64,000 nt of DNA from an uncultured Planctomycetales bacterium (GTDB lineage Bacteria > Omnitrophota > Gorgyraeia > Gygaellales > Profunditerraquicolaceae). How positions within the stretch are numbered: position 1 is the stretch's first letter; every line of letters begins with the position of its first letter. The notes under the pieces are model-generated. The model searched no databases, was not told the DNA's origin, and saw only the letters and a program-made list of their open reading frames with translations. Both the position numbers and the translations under genes were made by a program. The stretch is from positions 179,513-243,512 of the forward strand of contig CAZRVK010000002.1 in the NCBI GenBank assembly GCA_964603585.1. The letters are read 5' to 3'. Below are positions 1 to 18,517 of this stretch, piece after piece.

Positions 1-357
1 TATTATTTTATCGACAACCGGATCACCGTAAAAACCGTTGGTGATCATAATCACGTTCCTTGCGTTTTGTTTTGCGTAATCAATGGCTTCGAATATCCCC
101 TCATATAAAAACGGCTCCCCTCCGGTCAAAACCAAATCCGGGATATCCAGCTCTACCATTTCGTCAATGATGCTCTTTATCTCTTCTACCTTGATCTCAT
201 ATTCTTTGTTAAACTCGAGGTTCTTTATCCCGCACATAATACAGTGTTGATTGCAGAGATAATTAATGGTCAATGTTACGTTACGGGGAGGAAACAGCGG
301 CCAGTCGATTTTCTTAGAAATGAAATAACGTATGCGCTCTTTATTCTTTTTTTCCAT
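1..357 (-). CDS. radical SAM protein (partial; C-terminus lies beyond window start)
   Basis: Reverse-complement translation from ATG at 357 gives MEKKNKERIRYFISKKIDWPLFPPRNVTLTINYLCNQHCIMCG... with CxxxCxxC (CNQHCIMC) and a GGEPFLY glycine-rich SAM motif. Not in the ORF track because it is truncated by the window edge. Confidence 0.6.
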   Translation of the reverse strand, partial: MEKKNKERIRYFISKKIDWPLFPPRNVTLTINYLCNQHCIMCGIKNLEFNKEYEIKVEEIKSIIDEMVELDIPDLVLTGGEPFLYEGIFEAIDYAKQNARNVIMITNGFYGDPVVDKII

Positions 358-1312
358 AATACTCTACGCCTCCTACCATACAATTCATCATACAGGGCCT
401 TTGGCAGCTGGCTACCGCACGAAGTGCATCATCGGTGCTTGATTTATTCCAGATGGTCAGGAAATCATCTTTCTTTAGATCACCCAGACAATGGTCACAA
501 ATACAAACCTTGCCGTCCACGCATACGCTAAGAAAATCACGGCCGTTCCTGCATCTGAAAATGCCCGGCTCTAACATATTCTTATAATAATTGACGATAT
601 TATTCAGATAATCCATGGTGTTAGCAACATATATGGGTGCGGAACGGTCATTTTTTATCGCAATTATCTTCTGGATCTGGGAATCCAAAGCCTTCAGGTC
701 ATCTCCCCGGACCCAGAAAGGATCGGCTAACTGATTCTGCCGCAAATCAGCGTTATCAGACAAAAATACTTCATAGGTTATATTATTGCACCCCCAGGCA
801 GAAGCTAAATTCAGGATATTCACGAGTTCAAGCACATTATTCTTTACTATAACGGTATTAACGGTTAAAAACGGTTTTTTCCCTTTTGCCTTTCTTTGCT
901 TGAGATAACGCATAAACCCGCTTAGCCTGAAAAATACCCCTTCTCCTCGAATGCTATCATGGGTTTTACTATAACCTCCGTCCAGCGATACGGTAATCTG
1001 ATCCACCGGAAGAGAAAGCAAAAGATCTGCAAAGGCAAGCCCGTCGAAACCATTGGTGACGATCTTGACTTCTTTAAAAATGGTGCGTGAGGTCTTTAAT
1101 ATTTCTGTTATTCCTTGTTTCAACAAAACCTCTCCCCCTACAAAATCTATCGTAGACACACCGGCTGCGGATAAATCCTTAAGTATTGCGATGATCTGTT
1201 TTGTCGATAACTCCTTTAGGCTAAGGGTAGAACTTTGAAGATTGCAAATCCTGCATTTAAGCTGGCATCGGTATGTAATATTAAATACTGCTGCAGAAGG
1301 TATATCTGCCAT
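341..1312 (-). CDS. radical SAM / SPASM-domain protein
   Basis: CQLKCRIC (CxxxCxxC) near the N-terminus, a GGE motif, and a C-terminal Cys-rich SPASM-like cluster (CRNG..CVDGKVCICDHC..CQRPCMMNC). Confidence 0.8.
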   Translation of the reverse strand: MADIPSAAVFNITYRCQLKCRICNLQSSTLSLKELSTKQIIAILKDLSAAGVSTIDFVGGEVLLKQGITEILKTSRTIFKEVKIVTNGFDGLAFADLLLSLPVDQITVSLDGGYSKTHDSIRGEGVFFRLSGFMRYLKQRKAKGKKPFLTVNTVIVKNNVLELVNILNLASAWGCNNITYEVFLSDNADLRQNQLADPFWVRGDDLKALDSQIQKIIAIKNDRSAPIYVANTMDYLNNIVNYYKNMLEPGIFRCRNGRDFLSVCVDGKVCICDHCLGDLKKDDFLTIWNKSSTDDALRAVASCQRPCMMNCMVGGVEYYGKKE

Positions 1313-1349
1313 AGGTTTAACCCGGGTTATTTGTTGTTATTGTCGCGCA

Positions 1350-2405
1350 TCAATTATTCAAAACCCCGCCCGAAAGGTAATCATATAATTCTTTTGCCAC
1401 AAGCGCATGCCCAGCCGCATTAAAATGATACCGGTCGCCTAAGGCCAATTTAAGGCTATTCATCCCATAATCATCGAAGGCCTTCTTCATATCGATAAAT
1501 TCAAACCCGATGCTTTTTAGCTGTGTTGAAATCCAGGCCTGCTCTTTTTGGCTGGACTCCCAATATTCAAGACTGGGGAAAACGACAAAAACGGCCTTAA
1601 AATTGTGCGCCTGGCTCAACTGCTTCAATCTTTGCAGTGCCTGTATCGTAACACCATCACCTAAATCGACATAACTCGCCGGGATTTTAAGGATTTTACA
1701 CGCCTTAACCAAAGAATGGTTCACCAGCTTATATAATTCTGAATTCATATAAAGCCAAACAGAAAACGGAACTCCCGGGCACACAGGGACACTCCTTGAC
1801 AGATCAGCGCACGCATAATATCCTTGTTTCCTTATGATCCTGTGTTTTATATCCCTGTCGTTTAAACAATACCCTACAACCACAAGGTCCGGCTTAAAAG
1901 GCAGTAGTTTCTTCTCTAAAAATTCCACCTCTTGAGTAGTTGCATATCCCGGGATACCGCAATTAACCACGATATATTCTCCGGATCTGTCTTTATTAAG
2001 CAATGCCTCCAGCTGGTAAGGGTAATAATCACTGTCTAAATCCGCGCGCGGCTCTAAACGTGTTGTCGAATCGCCCAAGACAAATATCCTGTATGCGCCA
2101 GGTGAAGCGTTGATCCTGGATTTAAAACCATAAAACCAGGTATTCGGTTCATAAAATAACCGGCTGTTACTGCTAAGCACATAGTGCGGCGGTTCACCGT
2201 TTTGAGTGTGCTGAAACGTAGCCATCCCCCACCATCGTCGGTTGTCTTTAGCCAATATCTCTAATTGGGATACTCCCAATGCAAAAGGAGAATACCTCTC
2301 ATATATCCGAAGGAAACATTCGCATGCGAATAAACCCGCGAATATAGCAAATAAAACCAGGGGTAAATTCCCGAATCGCTTAGGCATTTTAGATTTTTCC
2401 CGCAT
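1350..2405 (-). CDS. SGNH/GDSL-family hydrolase with N-terminal membrane anchor
   Basis: Hydrophobic N-terminus followed by an IFVLGDSTT block (GDS motif). Sits inside the glycan cluster. Confidence 0.55.
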   Translation of the reverse strand: MREKSKMPKRFGNLPLVLFAIFAGLFACECFLRIYERYSPFALGVSQLEILAKDNRRWWGMATFQHTQNGEPPHYVLSSNSRLFYEPNTWFYGFKSRINASPGAYRIFVLGDSTTRLEPRADLDSDYYPYQLEALLNKDRSGEYIVVNCGIPGYATTQEVEFLEKKLLPFKPDLVVVGYCLNDRDIKHRIIRKQGYYACADLSRSVPVCPGVPFSVWLYMNSELYKLVNHSLVKACKILKIPASYVDLGDGVTIQALQRLKQLSQAHNFKAVFVVFPSLEYWESSQKEQAWISTQLKSIGFEFIDMKKAFDDYGMNSLKLALGDRYHFNAAGHALVAKELYDYLSGGVLNN

Positions 2406-2408
2406 GAT

Positions 2409-4337
2409 TTAATCACAAAAGCAAGGCAAAAGGCAAGGATTACCGCATGCCTTGACCCTTGCCATCGCCTGACGGCTTTCTTTAGAATCGAAGATATTTT
2501 TTAAATAATCCTTACGCACATTCCCATAACTGCCATAACAGGTGGTAACCTCGCCGTTATTTGCAATAAGCATGGTCCTTTCCGCATAAAGGCACCTCAC
2601 ATCCTGTGGGGCTAAATTACCGCGAAAGTATTTTTTGGCTAAAGCAAGATTATTCACCGAATTGCGCAAGAGCGAAACATTTTTATTCTTAAATTCTATC
2701 AGATCATCAATAACCTGGTCCAGGACAGCTAATCTTTCCTTGGGGATCCAATACTTAACCTTGCTCGAGCGCTGTTTCATTATCAGATTGTTAGAAAGTA
2801 ACGGCTGGAATTGTATCGAATTCACATTCAGGGATTTTAAAAACCCGGCCAAAGATAAAAGCTCTTCTAAGTTCTCATTAAGTATTATGGAAATAACGTT
2901 GAAGTTTATCCCCGGGTCGGTTTTCTTAAGATATGCGAGTTTCTTCAGCCCTTTAATAGTCTTTTCAAAACACCCCTTGCCACCTCTTATATCATCATGG
3001 ATCTCCGGCGTTAAAGCGTCCAGGGAGATACTCAAAGATAGCGCACGGGAAGTTAAATAAGGCGATAATCTGCCAATGAATTTGTCATCCAATAATATCC
3101 CGTTTGTTAAAATCCCAGTATGATATTTTTTCTCTTTTACATAATCCAGTATCTCAAATATATCCTCTCGTATAAGCGGTTCACCCCCGGACAAAACAAA
3201 CTCCTTTACCCCCCAGTCATAAGCCTGGGCAATCAGGCTTTTTACCTCGTTTGTGGCAAATTCCTTGATCGGACGGTCGGATCTAATCTCACAGATATTA
3301 CATTTTAGATTACACCTATGGGTTATATCCAAGATAATGAATTCCGGGCGATCATTAAGCGGGACGGTTTCCTTGAAATCCCCGGGTAAATCCGGATCAA
3401 TGAAGTTATGTGTCCTGAAATATTCGGAAACATTCCCTGCCAAGTAGATAATTTTATGCAAAGCTAAATAAGCATAGATCCGGGATCTCTTATAAAGATC
3501 GGCCTGCCCCTGCAAAGAAACCAGGCCATTACCTAAAAGACACGAAAACCGCGGGATCTTTAAAACATTAATTATAGTGGCAAACCAAAAAGAAACCTTG
3601 CCGGTAGAGAGTTCTTTTAACAGAGGGTGATCTTTATGTATCCTTTTAACAAGTAAATTCCCCCGGCCGTAAATGTATGCCTGTTTCATAAAACTCCGCA
3701 TATTTTCATCGCGATAATGTATGACTTTTATCTTTTTATCCCAAATGAACCTGTGCCCCCCCTTAAATAACCGCCAAAAGAATTCCAGGTCTTCTCCTCC
3801 GGGCAAAGGAAATCTTTCATCGAATTTATATTTGTCAAATACCCACCTCTTTAATGAAACATTGCAGGTGGGGAAAAAAATCACCTCTTTATTTCCTTTT
3901 ATGCTGGTTTCTATGCTGAATGTGCTTAAAAACTGGCTGACCATGACCGGGGTTTTCTGATTAGAAGCCAGGGTCAAGCCGCCTACTGCGGCAATATCCG
4001 GATTACTGCGGTGTGTCTCCACCATAGCCCTTACCCAGCCAGGGTGTGCCGTACAATCATCGTCGATAAAACCAACGATTGCACTGCAACTGTTTGTGAC
4101 CCCTAAATTCCTGCCCTTTGCCGGGCCAAATCCGGGTTGAGAAAAATATCTTAAGTTTGGATGCCGGGGCCTAAACCTGTCTATCAAAGACCTGGTCTCA
4201 TCACTGGCGGCATCATCGATTATGATAACCTCAAACGCATCCTGCGGATAATCCTGATGAATAAGGGATTTCAAACATTCCGCAAGTTTATCTTGCCTGT
4301 TATATGTCGGGACGATTATTGAAATATCAGTGGGCAC
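2409..4337 (-). CDS. family-2 glycosyltransferase fused to a radical SAM/SPASM domain
   Basis: N-terminal IIVPTYNRQD...IIIDDAASDE (GT2 fold, DxD). The C-terminal half has ITHRCNLKCNICE (CxxxCxxC), GGEPLIRED and a terminal CGNPCLLPCFCD SPASM-like cluster. Confidence 0.75.
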   Translation of the reverse strand: MPTDISIIVPTYNRQDKLAECLKSLIHQDYPQDAFEVIIIDDAASDETRSLIDRFRPRHPNLRYFSQPGFGPAKGRNLGVTNSCSAIVGFIDDDCTAHPGWVRAMVETHRSNPDIAAVGGLTLASNQKTPVMVSQFLSTFSIETSIKGNKEVIFFPTCNVSLKRWVFDKYKFDERFPLPGGEDLEFFWRLFKGGHRFIWDKKIKVIHYRDENMRSFMKQAYIYGRGNLLVKRIHKDHPLLKELSTGKVSFWFATIINVLKIPRFSCLLGNGLVSLQGQADLYKRSRIYAYLALHKIIYLAGNVSEYFRTHNFIDPDLPGDFKETVPLNDRPEFIILDITHRCNLKCNICEIRSDRPIKEFATNEVKSLIAQAYDWGVKEFVLSGGEPLIREDIFEILDYVKEKKYHTGILTNGILLDDKFIGRLSPYLTSRALSLSISLDALTPEIHDDIRGGKGCFEKTIKGLKKLAYLKKTDPGINFNVISIILNENLEELLSLAGFLKSLNVNSIQFQPLLSNNLIMKQRSSKVKYWIPKERLAVLDQVIDDLIEFKNKNVSLLRNSVNNLALAKKYFRGNLAPQDVRCLYAERTMLIANNGEVTTCYGSYGNVRKDYLKNIFDSKESRQAMARVKACGNPCLLPCFCD

Positions 4338-5535
4338 CTAAACCCCTTTCGCTCTCGGCCTTATTATTACCCCGGTGATAACCTTTAAGGCGCTCACCTC
4401 TCGAAACCGGACTAAAATAAAAATTCCTGTAGCAATCATTCATGAACCCATCGAATTCTTCTCTGCGGGTACAGCCTAATAAACAAGGGTTGGCGCATTG
4501 TTTAATACATTTTCTGAATGTATTCGCCTTGCGCGAATACCAAAGCTGCCGCAAGCTATCTTTATAAATATCTCCGAAGCTTATTTCACCTTGCATTGGC
4601 TCTTGAGCACAAAAATACATTTTGCCATCTTGAGAAACGATCATCCGATTAAAACCCGTATAACATTTCTGCTTAGGCAAGGTGCCCCTGAAATACCATT
4701 TCACCATTTGTAATTGATCTACTCCATTAAATATAAAATCGAAGTTTTCTTTGGATGAAAGTTTATACTCTACTAATTTGTTTATTGCCCGATCAAGTTC
4801 TGGATAGCGATCCCTGGGTATCCAATTTGAATCCGGGTTATCCCTTATCCTGGCGTCCGTGTTATCACTAACAACCGGCTGAAACCCGATACAGGCAACT
4901 TCTAATTTTCTTGCTAAATCCACAATATCCAGCAATTCTTCTATATTGTGATCCATTATAGTGCAAAAAATAACTATGTTGGGTAAAAAAGACTTCTTCG
5001 CTTTCTTTTTGCTATTTAACAAATTTATGTTGGATAATATCCGCTGGAAAATACCTTCGCCCCTGATTTTCTTGAAAGTATCTTCACACGCACCATCAAT
5101 CGAAACCACCAGATCTTCAAGCCCGGAGGCAAACATTTTGTCCACTATATCTAACCGGTCCAGAAGGGTGCCGTTTGTCGAAACCAGGGTTTTCATATTG
5201 CAGGTGTTGGCAAATTTTATGATCTCAAAGATATCCTCCCGTAAAAAAGGCTCTCCTCCCAGTAAAAACAACTGTTTAATCCCCATTTCCCGGGCTTGCA
5301 TTATCAAATTTATTATTACTTCATAAGGCAGCTCTGAATTCAGCCCGGATTGTTTAACTATTTCTGACCGTTCATGCATGTTGCACATTTTGCACCTTAA
5401 GTTACAACGGAACAAAAAACACAACTGCAACATATCCGGCTCAACCAAAGGATAACCTATTTGCCTGGAAAGATAAAATCTAAAATGTCTAAGTAATATT
5501 CTGGCTGTAGACTGCCAGTTCAAGACATCATTCAT
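4327..5535 (-). CDS. radical SAM / SPASM-domain protein
   Basis: FRCNLRCKMCNM (CxxxCxxC), GGEPFLREDIFEII, and a C-terminal CYTGF..YFCAQE...CIKQCANPCLLGC cluster. Paralogous to the adjacent rSAM genes. Confidence 0.8.
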   Translation of the reverse strand: MNDVLNWQSTARILLRHFRFYLSRQIGYPLVEPDMLQLCFLFRCNLRCKMCNMHERSEIVKQSGLNSELPYEVIINLIMQAREMGIKQLFLLGGEPFLREDIFEIIKFANTCNMKTLVSTNGTLLDRLDIVDKMFASGLEDLVVSIDGACEDTFKKIRGEGIFQRILSNINLLNSKKKAKKSFLPNIVIFCTIMDHNIEELLDIVDLARKLEVACIGFQPVVSDNTDARIRDNPDSNWIPRDRYPELDRAINKLVEYKLSSKENFDFIFNGVDQLQMVKWYFRGTLPKQKCYTGFNRMIVSQDGKMYFCAQEPMQGEISFGDIYKDSLRQLWYSRKANTFRKCIKQCANPCLLGCTRREEFDGFMNDCYRNFYFSPVSRGERLKGYHRGNNKAESERGLGAH

Positions 5536-5552
5536 TTTTCACCCCATGCCAC

Positions 5553-8270
5553 CTATCCATCAATACTAAAGTCGCCAGCAAAATAAAAATAATTCCCGGG
5601 GGCCATAATTAATTTAATCGGGTCCAAACACTGTATTAACCGGCCCCGGTGATAAACGTCGGAATTCACGATATTAAGGCGCTGATTGGCATTTACCCCT
5701 TGATTAAACAATGTGATCGTAGGCAATGATTTCTCCTGATCCGAGGTTTTAGCTACGCCAATACGCCTGGCATTATCCTCACTCGAATAAATAACATCCC
5801 ACTTGTCATCGAGGTTATTATTAAATACGGGAAAATCCTGCACCAAGGTATCTTTTATCCACCGGGAGTATATCTCTGAAACCATAAGATTTGTCTGCGC
5901 GGATTCGATCTCTACCTCTTTATTGATTTCCATTCTAACATTAAATTCAATAAGATTATCGTCTTTTATACCTATCTGCCAATATTGCGTCAGAGGTAAA
6001 TACACCCACTCTCCGGCAGCCTTAATTATCCGAGTATCATTTTCTATAATCTTCCATCTGGCAAAAGAAGCCGAATCATACCACCTCCCCTTAGAGCACA
6101 TGGAGGTATAAAGCCCCAGTTTCTTAGTCAGTTCGAAGCCATCCCAAAATATACGCCCGCTTCCCTGGCTAAAAATAATCTTCAGCCTATTGCCTTTCAA
6201 CTCATTTGAAACGGGACGACGCATTAAATCATTCCGCCCCAAATGCATGTCTAATTTAAAGCAAGGATATGTACCGACAGATAATTTATTGGCCCTTTCC
6301 GGATCTACTTTATCTATACGCATTATTCTTGCCTTATCATAAAAATTAGAATTGATGATTTTCGCATAATTATGAGATAGATTGGAGAACTTCACGTTTA
6401 ATTCCGGCAATTGTGCCTCTGGGACGGAAAGCCCCAATTCACCTTCAGGCAGGCATATTTGCAGCATATCCATTTCGCTTTCCCGGAAACTTTCCGGAAA
6501 AACTCCTACGCCATACTTGCTAAACCAATGTGAATAACCATCACAACAGGCAATAGAAAAATGCTGCTGATCAATAACTAACTCTTCAGCAACCTGGATG
6601 CTCACATCCCAATTAACAGAATTGCCACCGTTAATTTCTGCCTCCCAGATCTGGATCAATGCAAGACCAGGCCACCGACCTAAAGCAATGATCTTATTAC
6701 TACCTTGTTTCTTAACCTCCCATTGCGCCAGATTAGAAAAATACCCTTTCCCGCCAGAATAAACAGCTGTGCTGATGTGGTTGTTCTTGGTTAAGCTCCT
6801 GCCTTCATATTCGAGGATAAACCTGCCGTTATCGAACACGAGCTTTAAATCCTTGGCAGATAAAACAAACTCATTTTGTGTTTTTGAAAGATATCCGTCT
6901 ATATCTGCAGTATTTATCACCATCTTGCCTGCAAAACAAATGGACTGATCCGCCTGATGGACTGACTGGAGGGAAAAAGGGTTCAATCGGTACTGCAATA
7001 TGCGTGACCGCGATAAATAATCCGAGTTTATGATCGATCCCTGCGACAAGCCTCCTAACGGCAGTTTTTCAAACAGAAAAGACTTCATAATGGAATCATC
7101 CGAAGGCAAAGAATACACCCCAAGACAGGCGCTCGTAACAAGCCTTGTAAATATAGGTACCGGGATTTTATCTTCACCGCTAATTACAGGGAAAACCCCT
7201 TTCTTGGAATCAGCAAACCATTGGAGATATTCTTCTTTCATTGCAACATTAACATGCATTTCAAGCAAATCCGGGCTTTTATCCACCTCCAGCTCTATAT
7301 CCCAGGTAACCTCCATATTATCTGAAACCTCTATGTGCCAAACTTGAGTCAACCCTAATTGATAAAAATTACCGGCTGCCGTAAAGGCCCCGAAAGAGGT
7401 ATTTTTAATCTCCCATTCCGCTTGAGCAGAATTATACCACCTGGATCCGGCGTTAAATGCCGTATAGGCGCCCAAAGGAGAAGTAACTGGATCGCCGTTC
7501 CAGCTCAAAAATAATCTGCCATTATTAAATATTAAACCAAGGGGCCCCCTTTCAATTATCGCTATCCCCTCCGGGCTGCCAATGGCTTGAGAGTAAACAG
7601 GCACAACCTTAGAAGATGTATCGTCTTTTACCAGGGTGCCATTCTTCATAAAAAGCGCCCTTTTGCATAACCGTTGTAAAAGCGCCATATCATGGGTCAC
7701 AATAACAATAGTCCTGGATTGCTCTTTCAGCTCCAACATCTTTTTTATGCATTTTCTTTGAAAATATTCATCCCCCACCGACAAGGTATCATCGATAAGC
7801 AAAATATCCGGATCCGTATGAATGGCTATGGCAAAGGCCAGCCGCACGAACATACCCTGCGAATAACATTTTACCGGAGCATGAATGAACTTGCCTATCT
7901 CTGCAAATCCCACGATCTCTTCATATTTGGTTTCGATTAAATCTTTAGATAAACCAAAAAGTTCGGATTGCAGATAAAGATTTTCCCTGCCGGTCAATTC
8001 CGGCTGAAAACCAGCACCTAACTCCAGCAGCCCGGACACATTCTTCGATACTTTTATCTGGCCGCGGTCAGGTTTTAACATCCCTGCGATCAACTTTAAA
8101 ATCGTGGTTTTACCAGAACCATTTTCACCGATTATACCGACAATCTCTCCGGGTTCTACCGAAAATGTTACCCCTCTTAACGCCCAGAAATTATCCCAGG
8201 AGGCCTTGCCCTCGGCCATAAACTTGATCCGGTACATTTCCCAAACATCGCTTAATTCAATTATCGCCAT
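5553..8270 (-). CDS. wzt: ABC transporter ATP-binding protein, Wzt-like, with three tandem C-terminal substrate-binding-type domains
   Basis: Walker A GENGSGKTT, signature-like YSQGM, Walker B ILLIDDTLSVGD in the first ~250 aa. The remaining ~650 aa hold three ~160-aa repeats sharing NGR(L/F)(F/I)L..W.G / W...A.W(E/K)(I/V)K / Q.W.I motifs. Confidence 0.8.
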   Translation of the reverse strand: MAIIELSDVWEMYRIKFMAEGKASWDNFWALRGVTFSVEPGEIVGIIGENGSGKTTILKLIAGMLKPDRGQIKVSKNVSGLLELGAGFQPELTGRENLYLQSELFGLSKDLIETKYEEIVGFAEIGKFIHAPVKCYSQGMFVRLAFAIAIHTDPDILLIDDTLSVGDEYFQRKCIKKMLELKEQSRTIVIVTHDMALLQRLCKRALFMKNGTLVKDDTSSKVVPVYSQAIGSPEGIAIIERGPLGLIFNNGRLFLSWNGDPVTSPLGAYTAFNAGSRWYNSAQAEWEIKNTSFGAFTAAGNFYQLGLTQVWHIEVSDNMEVTWDIELEVDKSPDLLEMHVNVAMKEEYLQWFADSKKGVFPVISGEDKIPVPIFTRLVTSACLGVYSLPSDDSIMKSFLFEKLPLGGLSQGSIINSDYLSRSRILQYRLNPFSLQSVHQADQSICFAGKMVINTADIDGYLSKTQNEFVLSAKDLKLVFDNGRFILEYEGRSLTKNNHISTAVYSGGKGYFSNLAQWEVKKQGSNKIIALGRWPGLALIQIWEAEINGGNSVNWDVSIQVAEELVIDQQHFSIACCDGYSHWFSKYGVGVFPESFRESEMDMLQICLPEGELGLSVPEAQLPELNVKFSNLSHNYAKIINSNFYDKARIMRIDKVDPERANKLSVGTYPCFKLDMHLGRNDLMRRPVSNELKGNRLKIIFSQGSGRIFWDGFELTKKLGLYTSMCSKGRWYDSASFARWKIIENDTRIIKAAGEWVYLPLTQYWQIGIKDDNLIEFNVRMEINKEVEIESAQTNLMVSEIYSRWIKDTLVQDFPVFNNNLDDKWDVIYSSEDNARRIGVAKTSDQEKSLPTITLFNQGVNANQRLNIVNSDVYHRGRLIQCLDPIKLIMAPGNYFYFAGDFSIDG

Positions 8271-8271
8271 A

Positions 8272-9063
8272 TTAAATATGCTTTAATATCCTATCCTCAA
8301 AATACACGGAAATAAATAAACCAAGGCACACGCTTAATACCGTCCAACAGGCAACTTCCTGAAAAGTGGATATTGCGGGGATCTTACCTTGAAAGACTAT
8401 ATCATGATAAAAAGTAACAAAAGGGAGCGCCGGATTGAACTTAAAGATCCATCTAAACGCCTCCGGAACCATCTCTATGGAATAAAACACCGGCGTTGCC
8501 CAAAACCAAAACATCATAAAAACACCAAGAAAATGTTCGATATCCCGGAAGAAGATATTGGCTACCGAACAAATTAACCCTATCCCGCTGGCAAATAGAT
8601 ACGTAAACAAAAGGATGAATGGCAGCAAAGGAAAGACCCAGGCGATTTTAGGGTTGGAGAGCAAGAAAACCGGGTAGATCAAACACCAGCTCAAAAGAAA
8701 TGTGAAAAAGTAAGAAAGTGTTATACAAAGAGGTAATATTTCCTTGGGCAGGCCAAATTGATGCAAAACCCCGCGTTGATTGATAAAAGCCGGCGTTGTT
8801 TCAGATACCGCTCCGGACAAAAACATCCACGGCAAGATCCCGGAAAGCACAAATAATCCGAAATTTTCCATTTCCGTCTTAAAAACAACGGTAAATACGA
8901 AGGTTATTGCCAGCATTATCAAAACAGGGTTAATTATCACCCAGAAAACACCCAGGAAAGATGCAGCGTATTTAGCCTTAAATTGTTTTACCGCCATAAG
9001 CCATAAGGAGCGCCGGAAATGGTATATCTTCTTAATTTTTTCGGCAATTAATCTTAAAAGCAT
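8272..9063 (-). CDS. wzm: ABC-2 type transporter permease (Wzm/TagG/KpsM-like)
   Basis: 263 aa, six hydrophobic segments. Immediately upstream of and translationally coupled to the Wzt-like ATPase. Confidence 0.7.
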   Translation of the reverse strand: MLLRLIAEKIKKIYHFRRSLWLMAVKQFKAKYAASFLGVFWVIINPVLIMLAITFVFTVVFKTEMENFGLFVLSGILPWMFLSGAVSETTPAFINQRGVLHQFGLPKEILPLCITLSYFFTFLLSWCLIYPVFLLSNPKIAWVFPLLPFILLFTYLFASGIGLICSVANIFFRDIEHFLGVFMMFWFWATPVFYSIEMVPEAFRWIFKFNPALPFVTFYHDIVFQGKIPAISTFQEVACWTVLSVCLGLFISVYFEDRILKHI

Positions 9064-9134
9064 CCCGGGATTTAACCATCCTTCCAGATTATTTTAGATC
9101 AGTTGCATTTTTTACTAACTTTACACCCTCTGCG

Positions 9135-10457
9135 TTACGCCATCCCCCGCTCATCCCCCCAGAGCTGCATGGCTAAATTCGCGCCATCCAACAACGCATC
9201 TTCCATTGACATATACCGCCATGAACCATAGCGCCCACAGGAAAAAATATTATTCTTAGCTAAAAATCCAAGGATCCCTTCCCGTGACCGCTTATACTGC
9301 CTGTCATAAATCGGATAACCATATTTAATATCGTTTACGTCTTCTGCACAAATTTGATCGGTTTTATCCAGGATCCCGGTCTTTAGCAGGTCCGCGCGGA
9401 TCTTGCGGATCATTTCGGATTTATTCACGCGGCCATTCTTAGGATAAGAAACTTCGGCATATAAAGAATACTCCCCGGGCCGGGAGAGAACGAAATTATG
9501 ATAAAACCCTACCCGAAAAAAACAAATCTCCTTTTGAGGAAAATACATCCAGTGCCGGGAGGAATTATCATGTTTTTTAATCCCCAGGTTTAAATTAAAA
9601 ATGGAATTCCACTGCAGCTGGTTAAATAATTTACTTATCTCTGCAGGCAGGCTTTTAATCATGCCCGGCAATTCAGGCAAAGGGATGGTAGAAATCAAAT
9701 AGTCGTATTTTTGCCTGATCCCGGAGGCGGTTACTACCTCTTTTTTATCAAGATCGATACCCACCACCTTAGATCCAGTACTAATGTTTTTAGTCTCATT
9801 TGACAAAGCCGAAATCAACCGGCTTATCCCCCCGTTTTTGGGATACCAAAAACGGGCATTATATCCGAATTGCCTTTTGCTATCTTCGACGGTTCCTTCG
9901 ATCAGCTGTTCTAATGAAGGCACCGGGATCACCCCATCCAGCCACTCACAAGTCAGGTCACGAGGATCCAGCGTCCAGAATTTACGGTTATACGGCACCA
10001 TAAAATGGCGGGCGATACCTTTGCCAAAGGTCAGGTTGATCCAATTTAAAAAACCCGGATCTTTCCTATTACGGCTTTCGCATCCATACCTGCGGGCGTT
10101 AATGAAACCCAAAACGCACTCCTTGGAAACACGCGGAGGCAGGCCATGCAGATTTGCCTGAAAAGGATATGGGATATACCTTCCGCAGGTATACACCCAG
10201 GCACTTCTTTTATGAACCAGCAAATTGTCCGGCAACAGGTGCTTGATCAAATCGAATGATTCCCTGCGTTTAAAATGCAGCAGATGCCCTGAACAATCAA
10301 ACGTGAAGCCGTTTATTTGTTTTGAGCAGCATAAACCTCCTACGATGGGATCTTTTTCCAAAATCCGGTAATCTGCGCCTTTTTTATCGAGTTGCCGCGC
10401 GGCGCTTAAACCCGCTATCCCTGCGCCTAAAATAAGGAATTTTTTCTTAAGCATCAA
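9135..10457 (-). CDS. FAD-dependent oxidoreductase (amine-oxidase fold; UDP-galactopyranose mutase-like)
   Basis: N-terminal ILGAGIAGLSAA dinucleotide-binding motif. Sits in the glycan cluster and overlaps the MraY-like gene by 11 nt. Confidence 0.55.
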   Translation of the reverse strand: MMLKKKFLILGAGIAGLSAARQLDKKGADYRILEKDPIVGGLCCSKQINGFTFDCSGHLLHFKRRESFDLIKHLLPDNLLVHKRSAWVYTCGRYIPYPFQANLHGLPPRVSKECVLGFINARRYGCESRNRKDPGFLNWINLTFGKGIARHFMVPYNRKFWTLDPRDLTCEWLDGVIPVPSLEQLIEGTVEDSKRQFGYNARFWYPKNGGISRLISALSNETKNISTGSKVVGIDLDKKEVVTASGIRQKYDYLISTIPLPELPGMIKSLPAEISKLFNQLQWNSIFNLNLGIKKHDNSSRHWMYFPQKEICFFRVGFYHNFVLSRPGEYSLYAEVSYPKNGRVNKSEMIRKIRADLLKTGILDKTDQICAEDVNDIKYGYPIYDRQYKRSREGILGFLAKNNIFSCGRYGSWRYMSMEDALLDGANLAMQLWGDERGMA

Positions 10458-11430
10458 TTTTGACCCCGTTCATTTTAAAACCAACTGCTATCCCCGCCAC
10501 AAGTATTACGGCGATAACCATAATACCCAAGCCATTAGAAACCTGGCTTATTATCACCCCAGAAATAGCAAAAACCAAGCTCAAGCTTAACATTAAAAAA
10601 AGCGCCTTACGATTAGAATGGCCGATTTTTAAGAACCGCAGGACAAGATGATCCCCGCTTTTATGGAAAACCGGCCTTTTTTGTTTGACCCTCATACAGG
10701 CCAAGAATATCGTATCGAAGATCGGAAACCCCAGGATCAATAATGGAGTAAGTAACGCCGGGTGCCTACCGCTCTGCGCGTAGCTGATTAAGATCGCGAT
10801 CCCCGCCAAGAAAAAACCCAGGAAATGGCTTCCGGAATTACCCAGATAAACCCTGGCCGGAGGTAAGTTATAGATCAAAAATGCCCCCACCGCACCAAGC
10901 AAGGCAGCCAATAAAGCCGCCGCCATTATATTTCCATTTAAAAAAGATATGATAAAGAATGCCCCGGCAACGATAACCGCAACCCCGCCGGCCAACCCAT
11001 CAACCACATCTAACAGATTAAAAGCATTAGTAATCCCGATCATCCAGAGAAAGGTAATAAGAATATTGGCAAAAAGCCCTATATGGATAATCTGTGTCCG
11101 TAAACCGGATAAAACAAGGATCGAAACTGCCAGAGCCTGAACAATTAACTTGGTTTTTACTGAAAGTTCCTTCAAATCGTCTATCATTCCGAAAATAAAC
11201 ATTGCCGAAGAAGCTAATATAAGCGCCATAACAGGCTTTGGCAAAAACATCACCGGGGTTATCCAAAGCCAATACACCAGAATAACGGACAAGATAATGC
11301 TTAGCCCTCCGACAAGAGGAACGCCTTTAAAAAGAAACTTGTGTTTCCAGGAAAGTTTTATTAACAGGACAAGCAAGACCAATCCTAAGAAAAAACTCAA
11401 GATTGAAAAAAGGATATATTGTAAAGCCAT
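10447..11430 (-). CDS. polyprenyl-phosphate sugar-1-phosphate transferase (MraY/WecA family)
   Basis: Polytopic membrane protein with a GMIDDL motif and NAFNLLDVVDGLAGG (the NxxNxxDGxDGL motif of the family). Confidence 0.8.
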   Translation of the reverse strand: MALQYILFSILSFFLGLVLLVLLIKLSWKHKFLFKGVPLVGGLSIILSVILVYWLWITPVMFLPKPVMALILASSAMFIFGMIDDLKELSVKTKLIVQALAVSILVLSGLRTQIIHIGLFANILITFLWMIGITNAFNLLDVVDGLAGGVAVIVAGAFFIISFLNGNIMAAALLAALLGAVGAFLIYNLPPARVYLGNSGSHFLGFFLAGIAILISYAQSGRHPALLTPLLILGFPIFDTIFLACMRVKQKRPVFHKSGDHLVLRFLKIGHSNRKALFLMLSLSLVFAISGVIISQVSNGLGIMVIAVILVAGIAVGFKMNGVKIDA

Positions 11431-11523
11431 GATGATCTGGTTTTATGATGCTTTAAAAAATACCGCCTAATCGAGTCAATATTATATCATAAATATAATC
11501 CGCGGATTTATTTAATCAGCGTT

Positions 11524-14500
11524 TTAACGACAATTCATTGAAAGAGGCACCCTGCAGCAGAGGATCTTTATATATCGAAAAACCCGCGCAGCACCCTTAT
11601 AGTGGCATAATACCGCTTTGACCGTTCGATTATACTCATCTAAAGCCAGCGTAGCTTTATCCTCACCTAATTGATGTTTACTGTAATTAGCCTCTTCGAA
11701 CCTTTCCGTAAAGCGAATAAAGGTTCTATCGGAAATACCATACTTATTCTCGGCTATCACGGCTAATTCTAACGGGGGGATGAATTCCAGGTTCTGCGGG
11801 CTTAAAATCGAGAGTAATTCATTTAAATTACGGTATAAGGCAATGATAAATCCTCTGGGATCACTGTGCATCAGGCGGCATAACCGCTGCTTGGCCTGTT
11901 CAGCGATTAAATACAATACGAGAAAAGCTGCTGACGCCGCCAAAAGAATTGATCCGAATACCTTGGCCGCAATAACAAAGATCCACTCCCAGGTAACAAT
12001 AACCGAAACCTTAACCGGCAGGCTTTCTACCCCGCCGTATTTCGCATTAACTGCAGTTTCTCCGATAATTAAAGGATTGATCTTGCCTTTTTCTATTTTT
12101 AGTATTCTGGGCTTAGAAACATGCCAAAGGACTTCTCCGGTCAAATCCAAGAGGCTGTCATCGCTATAATATCCTTCTGCCTTTAGAGTTAATTGATCGA
12201 ACATGGATATCCTTGGATCAGACGGGGACAGCAAAATAGAAATAAGTTTGGCGCTATCTACTGTAACTATAGCGTTATTGCTCTTTATCCCGGAGATCTG
12301 GGCATAAATACCGGCGCTTCCCACAGAAACGCCCTGGACTTGCCCATGTTTAGAAACTCTTGCGACCGACTCATCCTGGCTCACCCACTCTACTGCCGAG
12401 GTAAGGTCGATCTCGGTTTTATCGCTAAGCACCCCCTGGGCTATTATTTCTCCGCTGGCGCCAAAAGCAAAATTCTGGGATTCCGGGATTATTTTTATTG
12501 CCACCAGGTTCTTCTCTATTGCCTCTACCCCCTCGTCTCTTTCAGCTTGTTCATTTTTGGCACCTTCTTTTGAAAAATTCTCTTCCTGCTCTAAATTAAA
12601 ACCTATCGCCAAATACCCGCTCAACTCCTTTAGACTATTTGCCAGGTTATCTCCTAATTGCCGGCTGATAACACCCTGTTCCTGCAATTTATCTATCCTG
12701 CCTTCTATGGAACCAGTCTCTTCTTCCAGGCCTTTTAAACTGTCAGTTTGGCTTAATTTATCAATTCTACCCGCAAGTTCTTTTTTGGTTTCCGGATTAG
12801 AACTATCCAGGTGTTTCTTAATTTCATCTTTTTTCTCTCCAACCGCACGTTGAGCCTCGATTTTAACCAACTCTAATTCTACGTTCTGCATCTTTTGTTT
12901 CTTTACATCGTCACCGCTGTCCCTTTTATCTGTAATCTCATCACCGCCAGTCCCTTTACCGCCGCCACTGCCTTCTGCACCTCGAATTTGCCCAAAACCA
13001 TCGCTAACACCGTCGCTCTTACTGCCTATGGAAATAGATTCAGCACCTGCGGCGGTGTTCAAACCCTCTCTAGCGGATTGACCTTGGGGATCAATCTTTG
13101 CCGTTAGATCATCTGTTTTCCTGGACAAATCCTGTTTTTCCAAACGCTCGGCCATTGCCTTCTCTTCATGGCCAGAAGATGCCTGGCCTGCGGCATTGTC
13201 TTTATTTGCCCCTCCTTGAACACCCGCTTCAGACAGATTATCCGATCCAGCCCCGGCAGATATTCCTTTATTGGACTGGCGAGCTCCCGTTTCTTGCTTG
13301 CGCCCGCCTTTTTTGCCTGAACTTCTGGCAACCAAATCTTTTTTTGCATCATACAATTTCTCTAACTCAATGATGATCAGGCGTTGCCCGGAAGAAGAAG
13401 CGCTTGAACGAAAATCATCTATCTTTTTTTGCAGTAAATCCAGGTCTTGCATGTTTTCCGCGCGTTTTATACCTTCCAATGCCTGGTTAAAATCTTCCCT
13501 GGCAAAAGCTTCTTGCAAATCACTCTTTACCATTAAACTATCCAGCTGTTGAGAAATAACCTGCTCATCTAAATGAACATCCAAATCTGCCGCCCCCTGT
13601 TCAGGCAGGTGTCGGCCTTCTATTTCTACATTTTCCAGTTCCTCCAGGATAGCCTTAAGATCATCGTGGTTATCTTCCAATTTAGCCGCACTTACCGAGT
13701 ATTCGAGCTCGTCGATCGTCTTTTCCGCCTGATCCAGCTTAACTTTGGAGAGATTTGTTTTCTCCAAACCTTTCTTCAGCGTGCGGTTTTTTTGCGCCAT
13801 AAGCATTCCCACTTTTAAAGAAAGCACTTCCTCCATATCCTCAATTATGTTTTTTTGCGCACCAACCGCTAATCCAGCCAAACTTTCCATTTGTTCCTGC
13901 ACCTGTTTTAAGCTGGAGGATTTACTCATTTTTTCAATATTGCCAAGGGCATGAAATAAAGGATCCCGCATCTCTTTGCCTTCTTCGGAGATCTTTTGCT
14001 TCAACTCTTTCATTTTCTTTAAATAAAGCTGGTAAAGTTTCCACTCTTTAAGAGAAACCACGGATGTTTTTTCTTCTTTTTTCAATTCCTTGTCCAATGA
14101 AGATCCCATGATCTCCGTATATGCGTTTTTTGCGTTTTTAACTGCCCCCTCCGAAGTATCGCTTTTCTGGATCCTACTTGTAGACTGATATATAAGGACC
14201 CGGTCTTTTATATTCAGGGGGTTGCTTTTTAGAACCTCCATTGCCTTGTTACGGGATATTTGCATATTTAAGAGCGCTTTGGTCTCCAGATAATCATTAG
14301 CTAAGGTTAAAATCTGCTCTGTATCATTTTTCTCCAGCCCCGGGCCTGGCTCCTTTAAAAGACTGACCAGCCCCTGATGCGCCGATTCCACCTCCACAGT
14401 ATCCGCGGAGTTTTTTATCAGGCGCTCTATAAAGCTCAATACCTGCCGGGCTGTTTCTACGGAGTCGGTCTTATTGATCAGGACGGTCGTTTCATTTTGC

Positions 14501-17377: not shown

Positions 17378-18517
17378 TTAATTATTTACCGATCTCTGAT
17401 AAAGCCAACTATGCTCTTCTACCATATGCTCAAGGTTAAACCGTATTCCTAAATAATCCCGGGCATTTTTAGCCAGGCAAACACGTAACTTATCATTTTT
17501 TAGTAAAGTAACCGTTTTTTCTGCCAAGGATTGCAAATCATGGGGAGTAACCATAAATCCTGTATAGGAATCTTTGACTACCTCGTTGACCCCTCCGGTA
17601 TCGGTAACTACAACCGCAACTCCGGCAAGCATGGCTTCTAAGACGCAGATCGGCTGCCCTTCCCATAATGAGGTCAATACAAATACATCCAGTGACGCCA
17701 GCAACCTCTGGATATCCCTGCGCCAGCCAAGTAAAATAAATTCTCTCTGTAAAGAAAGCCGCCGGATCCTTTCTTCTACTGCGTGCCGCAAACACCCATC
17801 CCCTGCCAAGATAAATCTGGTCTTAGGAATTTCCTTATGGATCAGGCCCGCCAAGGATACAAAGTCCAGAGGAGCCTTTTGCGGCTTAAGGCAGGCAACC
17901 ATGCCTACGGCAAATTCATCATCTGCCAGGCCAAATTCACTCCGGCAGGACAACGTTTTATTGGAAAACTCCTCGTAGTTCAAGCCATAACGGATCAGCT
18001 TGTATTTTTCGGAATAAGCGATCCTTTGCGCCAGGCCTTTTTTACGGTCATATTCGCAAACAACAACCAGGCAATCGGTAAGACTGCCGCATATCCTTTC
18101 CAATAAAATATACAGGCCTCGCACCAAAGGATGCTGAAAATCATTAAAGCTCCATCCATGCACCGTATGAATGATATTTTTTACTCCGGCCAGATGCCCG
18201 CCCAGGCGGCCAAGAATGCCGGCTTTGGAACTATGCGTATGCACAATTTGTATCCGGTTTTCCCTGATAAAACGGTATATTTCGATCAAACAGATCAAAT
18301 CGTTTACCGGACTAATCGGTCTCTCTAAAAACCGGGATAGTTTTAACTTTAACCCGGGAATCCCTCGAGCTTCATCGAGCAATAAACCTTCTTGAGCGGT
18401 AAATAAAAATACCTGGAAATCCGCTTCATCCAGCCTGCGGATAAGGCTCAACACCTGCTTTTGAGCCCCGCCCAATTCCATTTTTGTTACGATATAAAGG
18501 ATATTGATCTTAGGCAT
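17378..18517 (-). CDS. GT-B fold glycosyltransferase (family 4-like)
   Basis: 379 aa. The C-terminal E..TGGVNEVV region is typical of GT4 retaining glycosyltransferases. Confidence 0.7.
   Translation of the reverse strand: MPKINILYIVTKMELGGAQKQVLSLIRRLDEADFQVFLFTAQEGLLLDEARGIPGLKLKLSRFLERPISPVNDLICLIEIYRFIRENRIQIVHTHSSKAGILGRLGGHLAGVKNIIHTVHGWSFNDFQHPLVRGLYILLERICGSLTDCLVVVCEYDRKKGLAQRIAYSEKYKLIRYGLNYEEFSNKTLSCRSEFGLADDEFAVGMVACLKPQKAPLDFVSLAGLIHKEIPKTRFILAGDGCLRHAVEERIRRLSLQREFILLGWRRDIQRLLASLDVFVLTSLWEGQPICVLEAMLAGVAVVVTDTGGVNEVVKDSYTGFMVTPHDLQSLAEKTVTLLKNDKLRVCLAKNARDYLGIRFNLEHMVEEHSWLYQRSVNN

Follow-up and report, generated by a model that had tools for sequence, protein, structure and literature searches.

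The gene at positions 2409..4337 (minus strand) of the DNA analysed here, a stretch of 64,000 nucleotides referred to as the window, encodes one polypeptide in which a short linker joins a GT2 glycosyltransferase (GT) module to a radical SAM (rSAM) module. Comparison of the open reading frame (ORF), its Pfam domains, its homologues and an AF2 model confirms that the fusion is a genuine single gene in which both sets of predicted catalytic motifs are intact. Based on these features and on the neighbouring genes, we propose, at a probability of about 0.55, that the product is a bifunctional cytoplasmic enzyme, either soluble or peripheral, of a Wzm/Wzt-type surface-glycan pathway in a bacterium most probably belonging to Omnitrophota, and that it would both add a sugar and carry out radical tailoring.

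The fusion gene and its modules

The ORF specifies a product of 642 aa followed by a stop codon. Translation would begin at a GTG codon with a Shine-Dalgarno-like AAAGGGG located 5 nt to its 5' side, and the resulting N-terminus agrees with the start point of the homologues in a 44-sequence alignment. The original prediction of a single GT2-rSAM polypeptide is borne out by this one ORF, by the presence of both Pfam domains and by at least 120 full-length homologues. The best 120 database matches cover 96–100% of the query with 51–65% identity and include both Pfam domains, while the full-length fusion is encoded at 49 independent genomic loci; nearly all of the homologues come from Candidatus Omnitrophota MAGs. 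No missed stop codon or frameshift between the domains was found in these matches or loci. An assembly or annotation artefact, in which a sequencing error joined two neighbouring genes, might be suspected from the few MAGs where the modules are present as separate, slightly overlapping ORFs; in five MAGs they are adjacent genes divided at aa ~311–315. The frame is, however, uninterrupted in proteins from independent samples and assemblers, an identical protein was obtained from an independent read-set assembly, and the linker varies yet remains in frame. A frameshift or misassembly was thus rejected on comparative data, and its probability is considered negligible.

Fusions of this type had been described as rare. 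This holds for characterised enzymes, as a literature search found no paper describing a GT2-rSAM fusion or this Omnitrophota locus, but not for sequence space: scoring of 8000 candidates gave 349 matches with E≤1e-5, and GT2 and rSAM modules occur together, in several orders, in 23 of the 149 best clusters at 50% identity. A 2026 preprint on giant proteins of Omnitrophota merely lists radical SAM among the domains of multi-enzyme proteins. In other genomes, larger fusions occur with the arrangements GT-RS-RS (963–1251 aa), RS-GT-RS and B12-rSAM-GT-RS. By Rosetta-stone logic, the existence of both the split neighbours and the multi-rSAM fusions argues that the modules work together. In an archaeal-type locus, the fusion lies alongside MurA-like and GT2-MurB genes, which encode UDP-sugar enzymes.

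The GT2 (GT-A) module comprises aa 1–312 (3402..4337, minus strand). Its match to Pfam Glycos_transf_2 (PF00535) extends over aa 6–168 (E value 1.8e-30; 106.5 bits against a cut-off of 23.3), and the GT-A Rossmann-like fold is present. The residues D42, D92 and D94 of the DxD motif (D92-D93-D94), E182 and D183 are invariant in the 44-sequence alignment. The C-terminal subdomain consists of three conserved helices, at residues 213–234, 247–276 and 281–312. The nearest solved folds are those of WrtF, K4CP, TarP, AvpGT and GlfT2, all of which act on polymeric or lipid-linked glycans; K4CP is the top PDB sequence match (E value 2e-23), and the AvpGT deposit carries the title Und-PP-oligosaccharide beta-1,3-glucosyltransferase. 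We propose that this module is an inverting glycosyltransferase employing an NDP-sugar.

The two domains had been thought to be separated by a linker of about 90 aa. This was not borne out, since aa 213–312 form the three confidently modelled, conserved GT helices; the AF2 helices, the column conservation and the split-gene boundaries all rule it out. Stand-alone GT homologues (311–322 aa) and the split genes stop exactly at the end of the GT module, aa 312. The true interdomain linker, identified from pLDDT, conservation and the translation, comprises aa 313–327 (IDPDLPGDFKETVPL; 3357..3401, minus strand). It is the sole long segment of the fusion with a pLDDT below 50 in the AF2 model, and its column conservation of 0.17–0.20, accompanied by indels, compares with 0.4–0.9 elsewhere in the fusion. 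The disordered, unconserved and indel-bearing stretch is confined to aa 311–330. The linker is about 15–20 aa long and variable in sequence and length, with the reading frame kept.

The radical SAM module, aa 328–642 (2412..3356, minus strand), includes a partial TIM-barrel core and a C-terminal auxiliary-cluster subdomain. The beta-1 strand begins 6 residues past the linker, with no N-terminal extension ahead of the core. The region with the CX3CX2C motif scores as radical SAM, with a Pfam Radical_SAM (PF04055) match over aa 338–499 (E value 6.1e-24; 85.5 bits against a cut-off of 29.5). As originally quoted, the GT2 and rSAM motifs are present, and the translation yields both CNLKCNIC and a C-terminal cysteine stretch. 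The three cysteines of CNLKCNIC (C342, C346 and C349; 3291..3314, minus strand), which are the predicted ligands of the SAM-cleaving [4Fe-4S] cluster, are invariant in the 44 sequences, as are G384, G385 and E386 of the SAM-binding motif GGEP. Such invariance of the motif residues in both modules indicates that both predicted active sites are under selection.

The C-terminal cysteine region (2421..2594, minus strand), defined by the translation, the alignment and Pfam SPASM, resembles a truncated SPASM or twitch subdomain. The canonical SPASM motif has seven cysteines, CX9-15GX4C ... CX2CX5CX3C ... C, and binds two auxiliary [4Fe-4S] clusters. This seven-cysteine motif is absent from the fusion, which contains only CX12GX4C and CX3CX3C (C582-X12-G-X4-C600, then C631-X3-C635-X3-C639). 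All five residues are invariant in the 44-sequence alignment. The last cysteine of CGNPCLLPCFCD (C641) is not invariant and is therefore not counted among the five conserved cysteines; the protein ends 3 residues past C639. The Pfam SPASM match over aa 582–630 lies barely above threshold (E value 1.3e-4; 22.6 bits against a cut-off of 21.5), and a precomputed PF13186 match is found in only part of the fusion homologues. Hence, of the radical-SAM/SPASM domain initially described, the rSAM core is intact and a C-terminal auxiliary-cluster region is present, but the SPASM portion is incomplete. Since five cysteines would provide the ligands for one auxiliary cluster and not for the canonical two, a single twitch-like cluster is suggested. 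The rSAM paralogues of the array share the CX3CX3C motif.

The AF2 model of the whole fusion has a pLDDT of 87 and a pTM of 0.52, at which the relative placement of the two modules and their active sites is not reliable; therefore, no conclusion is drawn on the orientation of the GT module with respect to the rSAM module. No transmembrane segment was detected, the maximum Kyte-Doolittle hydropathy being 1.36 in a 19-residue window, and a membrane anchor within helices 247–312 was ruled out because no segment there has transmembrane-like hydropathy. Neither module reaches an NCBIfam equivalog cut-off. For both the fusion and the neighbouring rSAM genes, the named equivalogs EpsD, MftF, StsB, AhbD and NirJ, and likewise W_rSAM_matur, BlsE, MoaA and PqqE, remain below cut-off.

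The surrounding locus

The genes around the fusion follow a conserved order, namely a WecA-like GT4, an FAD enzyme, Wzm, a 905-aa Wzt, the fusion, and then paralogous rSAM genes. The WecA/MraY-family polyprenyl-phosphate sugar-phosphate transferase (10447..11430, minus strand; Pfam Glycos_transf_4, E value 1.8e-35) is found in 21 of 30 related loci and is likely the initiating enzyme; it matches NCBIfam ECA_wecA with an E value of 1e-27 and 97 bits, below the cut-off of 326. The FAD/NAD-binding oxidoreductase (9135..10457, minus strand; 23 of 30 related loci) has an amine-oxidase fold, is PRK07208-like and shares weak similarity with UDP-galactopyranose mutase. The ABC-2 permease of the Wzm type (8272..9063, minus strand; Pfam ABC2_membrane, E value 1e-12) occurs in 28 of 30 related loci. 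A GT-B glycosyltransferase (17378..18517, minus strand; Pfam Glycos_transf_1/Glyco_transf_4) is conserved upstream in 21 of 30. Judged by this gene content, i.e., GT1, WecA-like GT4, FAD enzyme, Wzm and Wzt, the locus is a predicted ABC-transporter-dependent (Wzm/Wzt) glycan pathway.

The Wzt-type ABC ATPase of 905 aa (5553..8270, minus strand), present in 38 of 42 loci, was identified by Pfam ABC_tran and by TagH/Wzt-like NCBIfam families, and its AF2 model has a pLDDT of 84.5. Its nucleotide-binding domain (residues 1–230) shares 41% identity with the Wzt of the Aquifex aeolicus O-antigen transporter, with a target-normalised TM-score of 0.87, and dominates the matches when the model is used in a fold search. 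There is no match in this protein to Pfam Wzt_C, the C-terminal carbohydrate-binding domain by which Wzt recognises a modified chain end; instead, three all-beta repeats of ~210 aa are found at 236–452, 469–678 and 696–904. Only about 37 proteins, all from loci of this type, carry this C-terminal extension.

A stand-alone rSAM/SPASM-like paralogue of 402 aa (4327..5535, minus strand), sharing 31% identity with the rSAM module of the fusion, overlaps the fusion start by 11 nt. The overlap, from which translational coupling had been predicted, is real but specific to this genome, since most relatives have Wzt upstream of the fusion and the rSAM orthologue downstream; of 45 loci, 23 contain an orthologue with a score above 250 bits, which lies immediately 3' of the fusion in 14. 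Only 3 nt downstream of the fusion is a gene for an SGNH/GDSL hydrolase-like protein (1350..2405, minus strand; Pfam Lipase_GDSL_2, E value 4.7e-13), which recurs in some related loci and is possibly a glycan O-acyl esterase or transferase. The next member of the array, recognised by Pfam, is a 323-aa rSAM/SPASM-like paralogue (341..1312, minus strand). The array runs past coordinate 1 of the window, and in locus L001 there are five further rSAM genes, giving six rSAM modules in total. In related loci, the number of paralogous rSAM genes after the fusion is 1–8, with a median of 5. The locus contains at least nine paralogous rSAM modules and two or three GTs, an excess that is unusual when compared with any known glycan pathway.

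Intergenic gaps do not exceed 93 nt across positions 1..11523 of the window, with similar packing in locus L001, and such short gaps could not accommodate a gene for a precursor peptide. Operon structure was judged by gene packing alone. In a promoter and terminator scan of positions 1..12000 the counts equalled the shuffled expectation, and the scan is therefore uninformative.

Proposed function and alternatives

In the proposed pathway, the WecA-like GT4 would initiate a glycan on polyprenyl phosphate, and the GT2 module (aa 1–312) would move a sugar from an NDP-sugar onto the lipid-linked glycan. The rSAM module (aa 328–642), held on a flexible tether of ~15 residues, would generate a 5'-deoxyadenosyl radical by SAM cleavage at the [4Fe-4S] cluster of its CX3CX2C motif, and this radical would then remove a hydrogen from a carbon of one of the sugars in that glycan. 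The single twitch-like auxiliary cluster carried by the five C-terminal cysteines may help to finish the tailoring reaction, which could be an epimerisation, dehydrogenation, dehydration or decarboxylation, as in sugar-directed rSAM enzymes. All of these steps would take place at the cytoplasmic face, which offers SAM and a low-potential reductant, and export of the completed glycan by Wzm/Wzt would follow. Among the 5–10 tandem paralogous rSAM enzymes of the locus, the fusion is the most conserved, and the others presumably add further modifications. The data establish the fusion with its intact motifs, its folds, its gene neighbourhood and its distribution among taxa; we infer that the substrate is a glycan, which of the two reactions comes first and how many auxiliary clusters there are. 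Modification of the sugar close to the moment of its transfer is plausible and fits the genomic context.

The known ABC-transporter-dependent O-antigen pathways provide a close parallel for the locus, with a WecA-like initiator (in the locus a candidate only), completion in the cytoplasm, export by Wzm/Wzt and an extended Wzt C-terminus, although the Wzt found here has three beta-repeats and no detectable Wzt_C. Multi-domain assembly and chain-terminating enzymes of these pathways include WbdA, WbdD and WbbB, in which, as in the fusion, a GT is combined with another catalytic module; a further example is the two-GT2 polymerase K4CP. The second module of the fusion is, however, a radical SAM enzyme, a combination that was not found described in the literature, whereas known O-antigen chain terminators add methyl, phosphate or Kdo by non-radical chemistry. 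Radical abstraction of hydrogen from a carbohydrate carbon is performed by the sugar-directed twitch and SPASM enzymes, among them the BtrN dehydrogenase, DesII, and the aminoglycoside epimerases and dehydratases NeoN, HygY and AprD4. The fusion resembles this type in its predicted single auxiliary cluster and truncated SPASM (twitch) region. In contrast, these enzymes are stand-alone and their substrates are small-molecule antibiotic intermediates, and the CX12GX4C...CX3CX3C pattern is a distinct variant common only to the fusion and the paralogues of its locus.

The closest solved structure to the rSAM module is BlsE (PDB: 7vob), which is also the top PDB sequence match (E value 1.8e-11). 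BlsE, the cytosylglucuronate decarboxylase of the blasticidin S pathway, is a radical SAM enzyme with a sugar substrate, and it shares CX3CX2C and GGEP with the fusion (PMC3715490). The identity is only 19–20%, and the similarity is limited to the first ~150 residues of the rSAM module; moreover, BlsE works in a nucleoside-antibiotic pathway as a stand-alone protein, with neither a GT fusion nor a link to an exporter. The NCBIfam family rSAM_BlsE does not appear among the 25 top-scoring families for the fusion, and the neighbouring paralogues score 47–92 bits against its cut-off of 400. BlsE acts on a small nucleoside-sugar and not on a polymer, which would favour coupling on the donor side, i.e., that the rSAM module subjects a common NDP-sugar to, for example, radical decarboxylation, deoxygenation or epimerisation, and that the product, an unusual NDP-sugar that may be unstable, is channelled to the fused GT2. 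A short flexible tether between globular modules would suit channelling, and the GT-RS pairing is seen repeatedly in several architectures. One rSAM per donor would nevertheless leave the excess of rSAM modules over GTs unexplained, and the existence of split forms, which work as separate proteins, means that channelling is not obligatory. We consider a donor-side role rather unlikely.

Most SPASM and twitch enzymes modify peptides or proteins, as do MftC, PqqE, AlbA, SkfB, SuiB and anSME, and some GT2 enzymes, such as MftF and SunS, glycosylate such substrates. The fusion might accordingly be a maturase, in which the rSAM module cross-links or epimerises a peptide or surface protein that the GT2 glycosylates before ABC export. 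The mycofactocin system, in which MftF, a GT2 of the same subfamily, shares a pathway with the SPASM-type rSAM MftC, offers a comparison. TIGR03965 (MftF) aligns to aa 3–259 of the fusion (E value 8e-36), the other top partial NCBIfam matches include StsB, WgkB, AlbA and MftC, and some RiPP clusters contain tandem rSAM paralogues. The mycofactocin scores are, however, 123.8 against a cut-off of 280 and 71 against 265, and the best RiPP-maturase score is 94 bits against cut-offs of 265–850. MftF and MftC are separate proteins, and the fusion locus contains neither an MftA precursor nor MftB/RRE. No RRE/PqqD leader-binding domain or other extra domain was found in the fusion (Pfam, E≤0.01), the rSAM core has no N-terminal extension, and neither positions 1..11523 of the window nor locus L001 have intergenic space for a precursor gene; with neither RRE nor precursor, a RiPP cluster was rejected. 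The transporter is of the polysaccharide or O-antigen (Wzm/Wzt) type and not a peptidase-containing or ABC-B exporter, and the WecA-like, GT1 and FAD genes are co-conserved, all of which makes peptide or protein maturation improbable. A lipid substrate is also a long shot. Here the rSAM modules would alter the hydrocarbon of a glycosylated isoprenoid or membrane lipid to which the GT2 adds a head-group sugar, in analogy to HpnH/HpnI/HpnJ (hopanoid side chain) or Tes/Grs (tetraether lipids). In the hopanoid case the GT2 HpnI and the rSAM enzymes HpnH and HpnJ cooperate on a lipid-anchored, sugar-containing product, and one neighbouring paralogue has a weak match to HpnH. The phytoene-desaturase/amine-oxidase fold of the FAD enzyme, a related locus with genes for PEMT and two U32 proteins upstream, and the rSAM lipid-synthase homologues that papers report from elsewhere in the genomes of Omnitrophota MAGs would agree with such a role. 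Yet HpnI, HpnH and HpnJ are separate proteins whose rSAM members belong to other subfamilies, the similarity is marginal, and the locus has no hopanoid genes. Lipid rSAM enzymes are far less similar to the module than BlsE, SkfB and SuiB, the core synteny includes no conserved lipid-synthesis genes, and the transporter and WecA-like initiator are typical for polyprenol-linked glycans.

Within the preferred reading, i.e., a bifunctional enzyme of surface-glycan assembly, we tentatively speculate further that the whole paralogous twitch-like rSAM family, including the member fused to the GT2 that would install the target sugar, modifies the lipid-linked polysaccharide at the polymer level by epimerisation, deoxygenation, decarboxylation or cross-linking, much as rSAM epimerases and cross-linkers act on RiPP peptides. 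The fusion might also be the chain terminator, and the end residue that it had modified by radical chemistry would then serve as the export signal, recognised by the unusual triple beta-repeat tail of Wzt. Such a system would occur in nearly all Omnitrophota and also in some DPANN-type archaea.

Implications

Almost all known examples of radical SAM chemistry on carbohydrates come from small-molecule antibiotic pathways, and a literature search found no report of it as a fused part of cell-envelope polysaccharide assembly. The fusion and its locus point to an unstudied, oxygen-free modification of cell-surface sugars. An rSAM enzyme is hard-wired to a GT, is conserved through the uncultured, strictly anaerobic phylum Omnitrophota, and adjoins both an O-antigen-type exporter with an unusual, putatively substrate-reading tail and 5–10 paralogous rSAM genes. 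Should the substrate prove to be a peptide or lipid, the fusion would nevertheless be the sign of a modification system not yet described. If the fusion does act on a glycan, it would define a new way to form rare or cross-linked surface sugars without oxygen, together with a large sugar-directed rSAM family, for which the fused GT offers enzymologists a built-in clue to the substrate, and it would bear on how the tiny, possibly host-attached cells of Omnitrophota and DPANN build and vary their surfaces.

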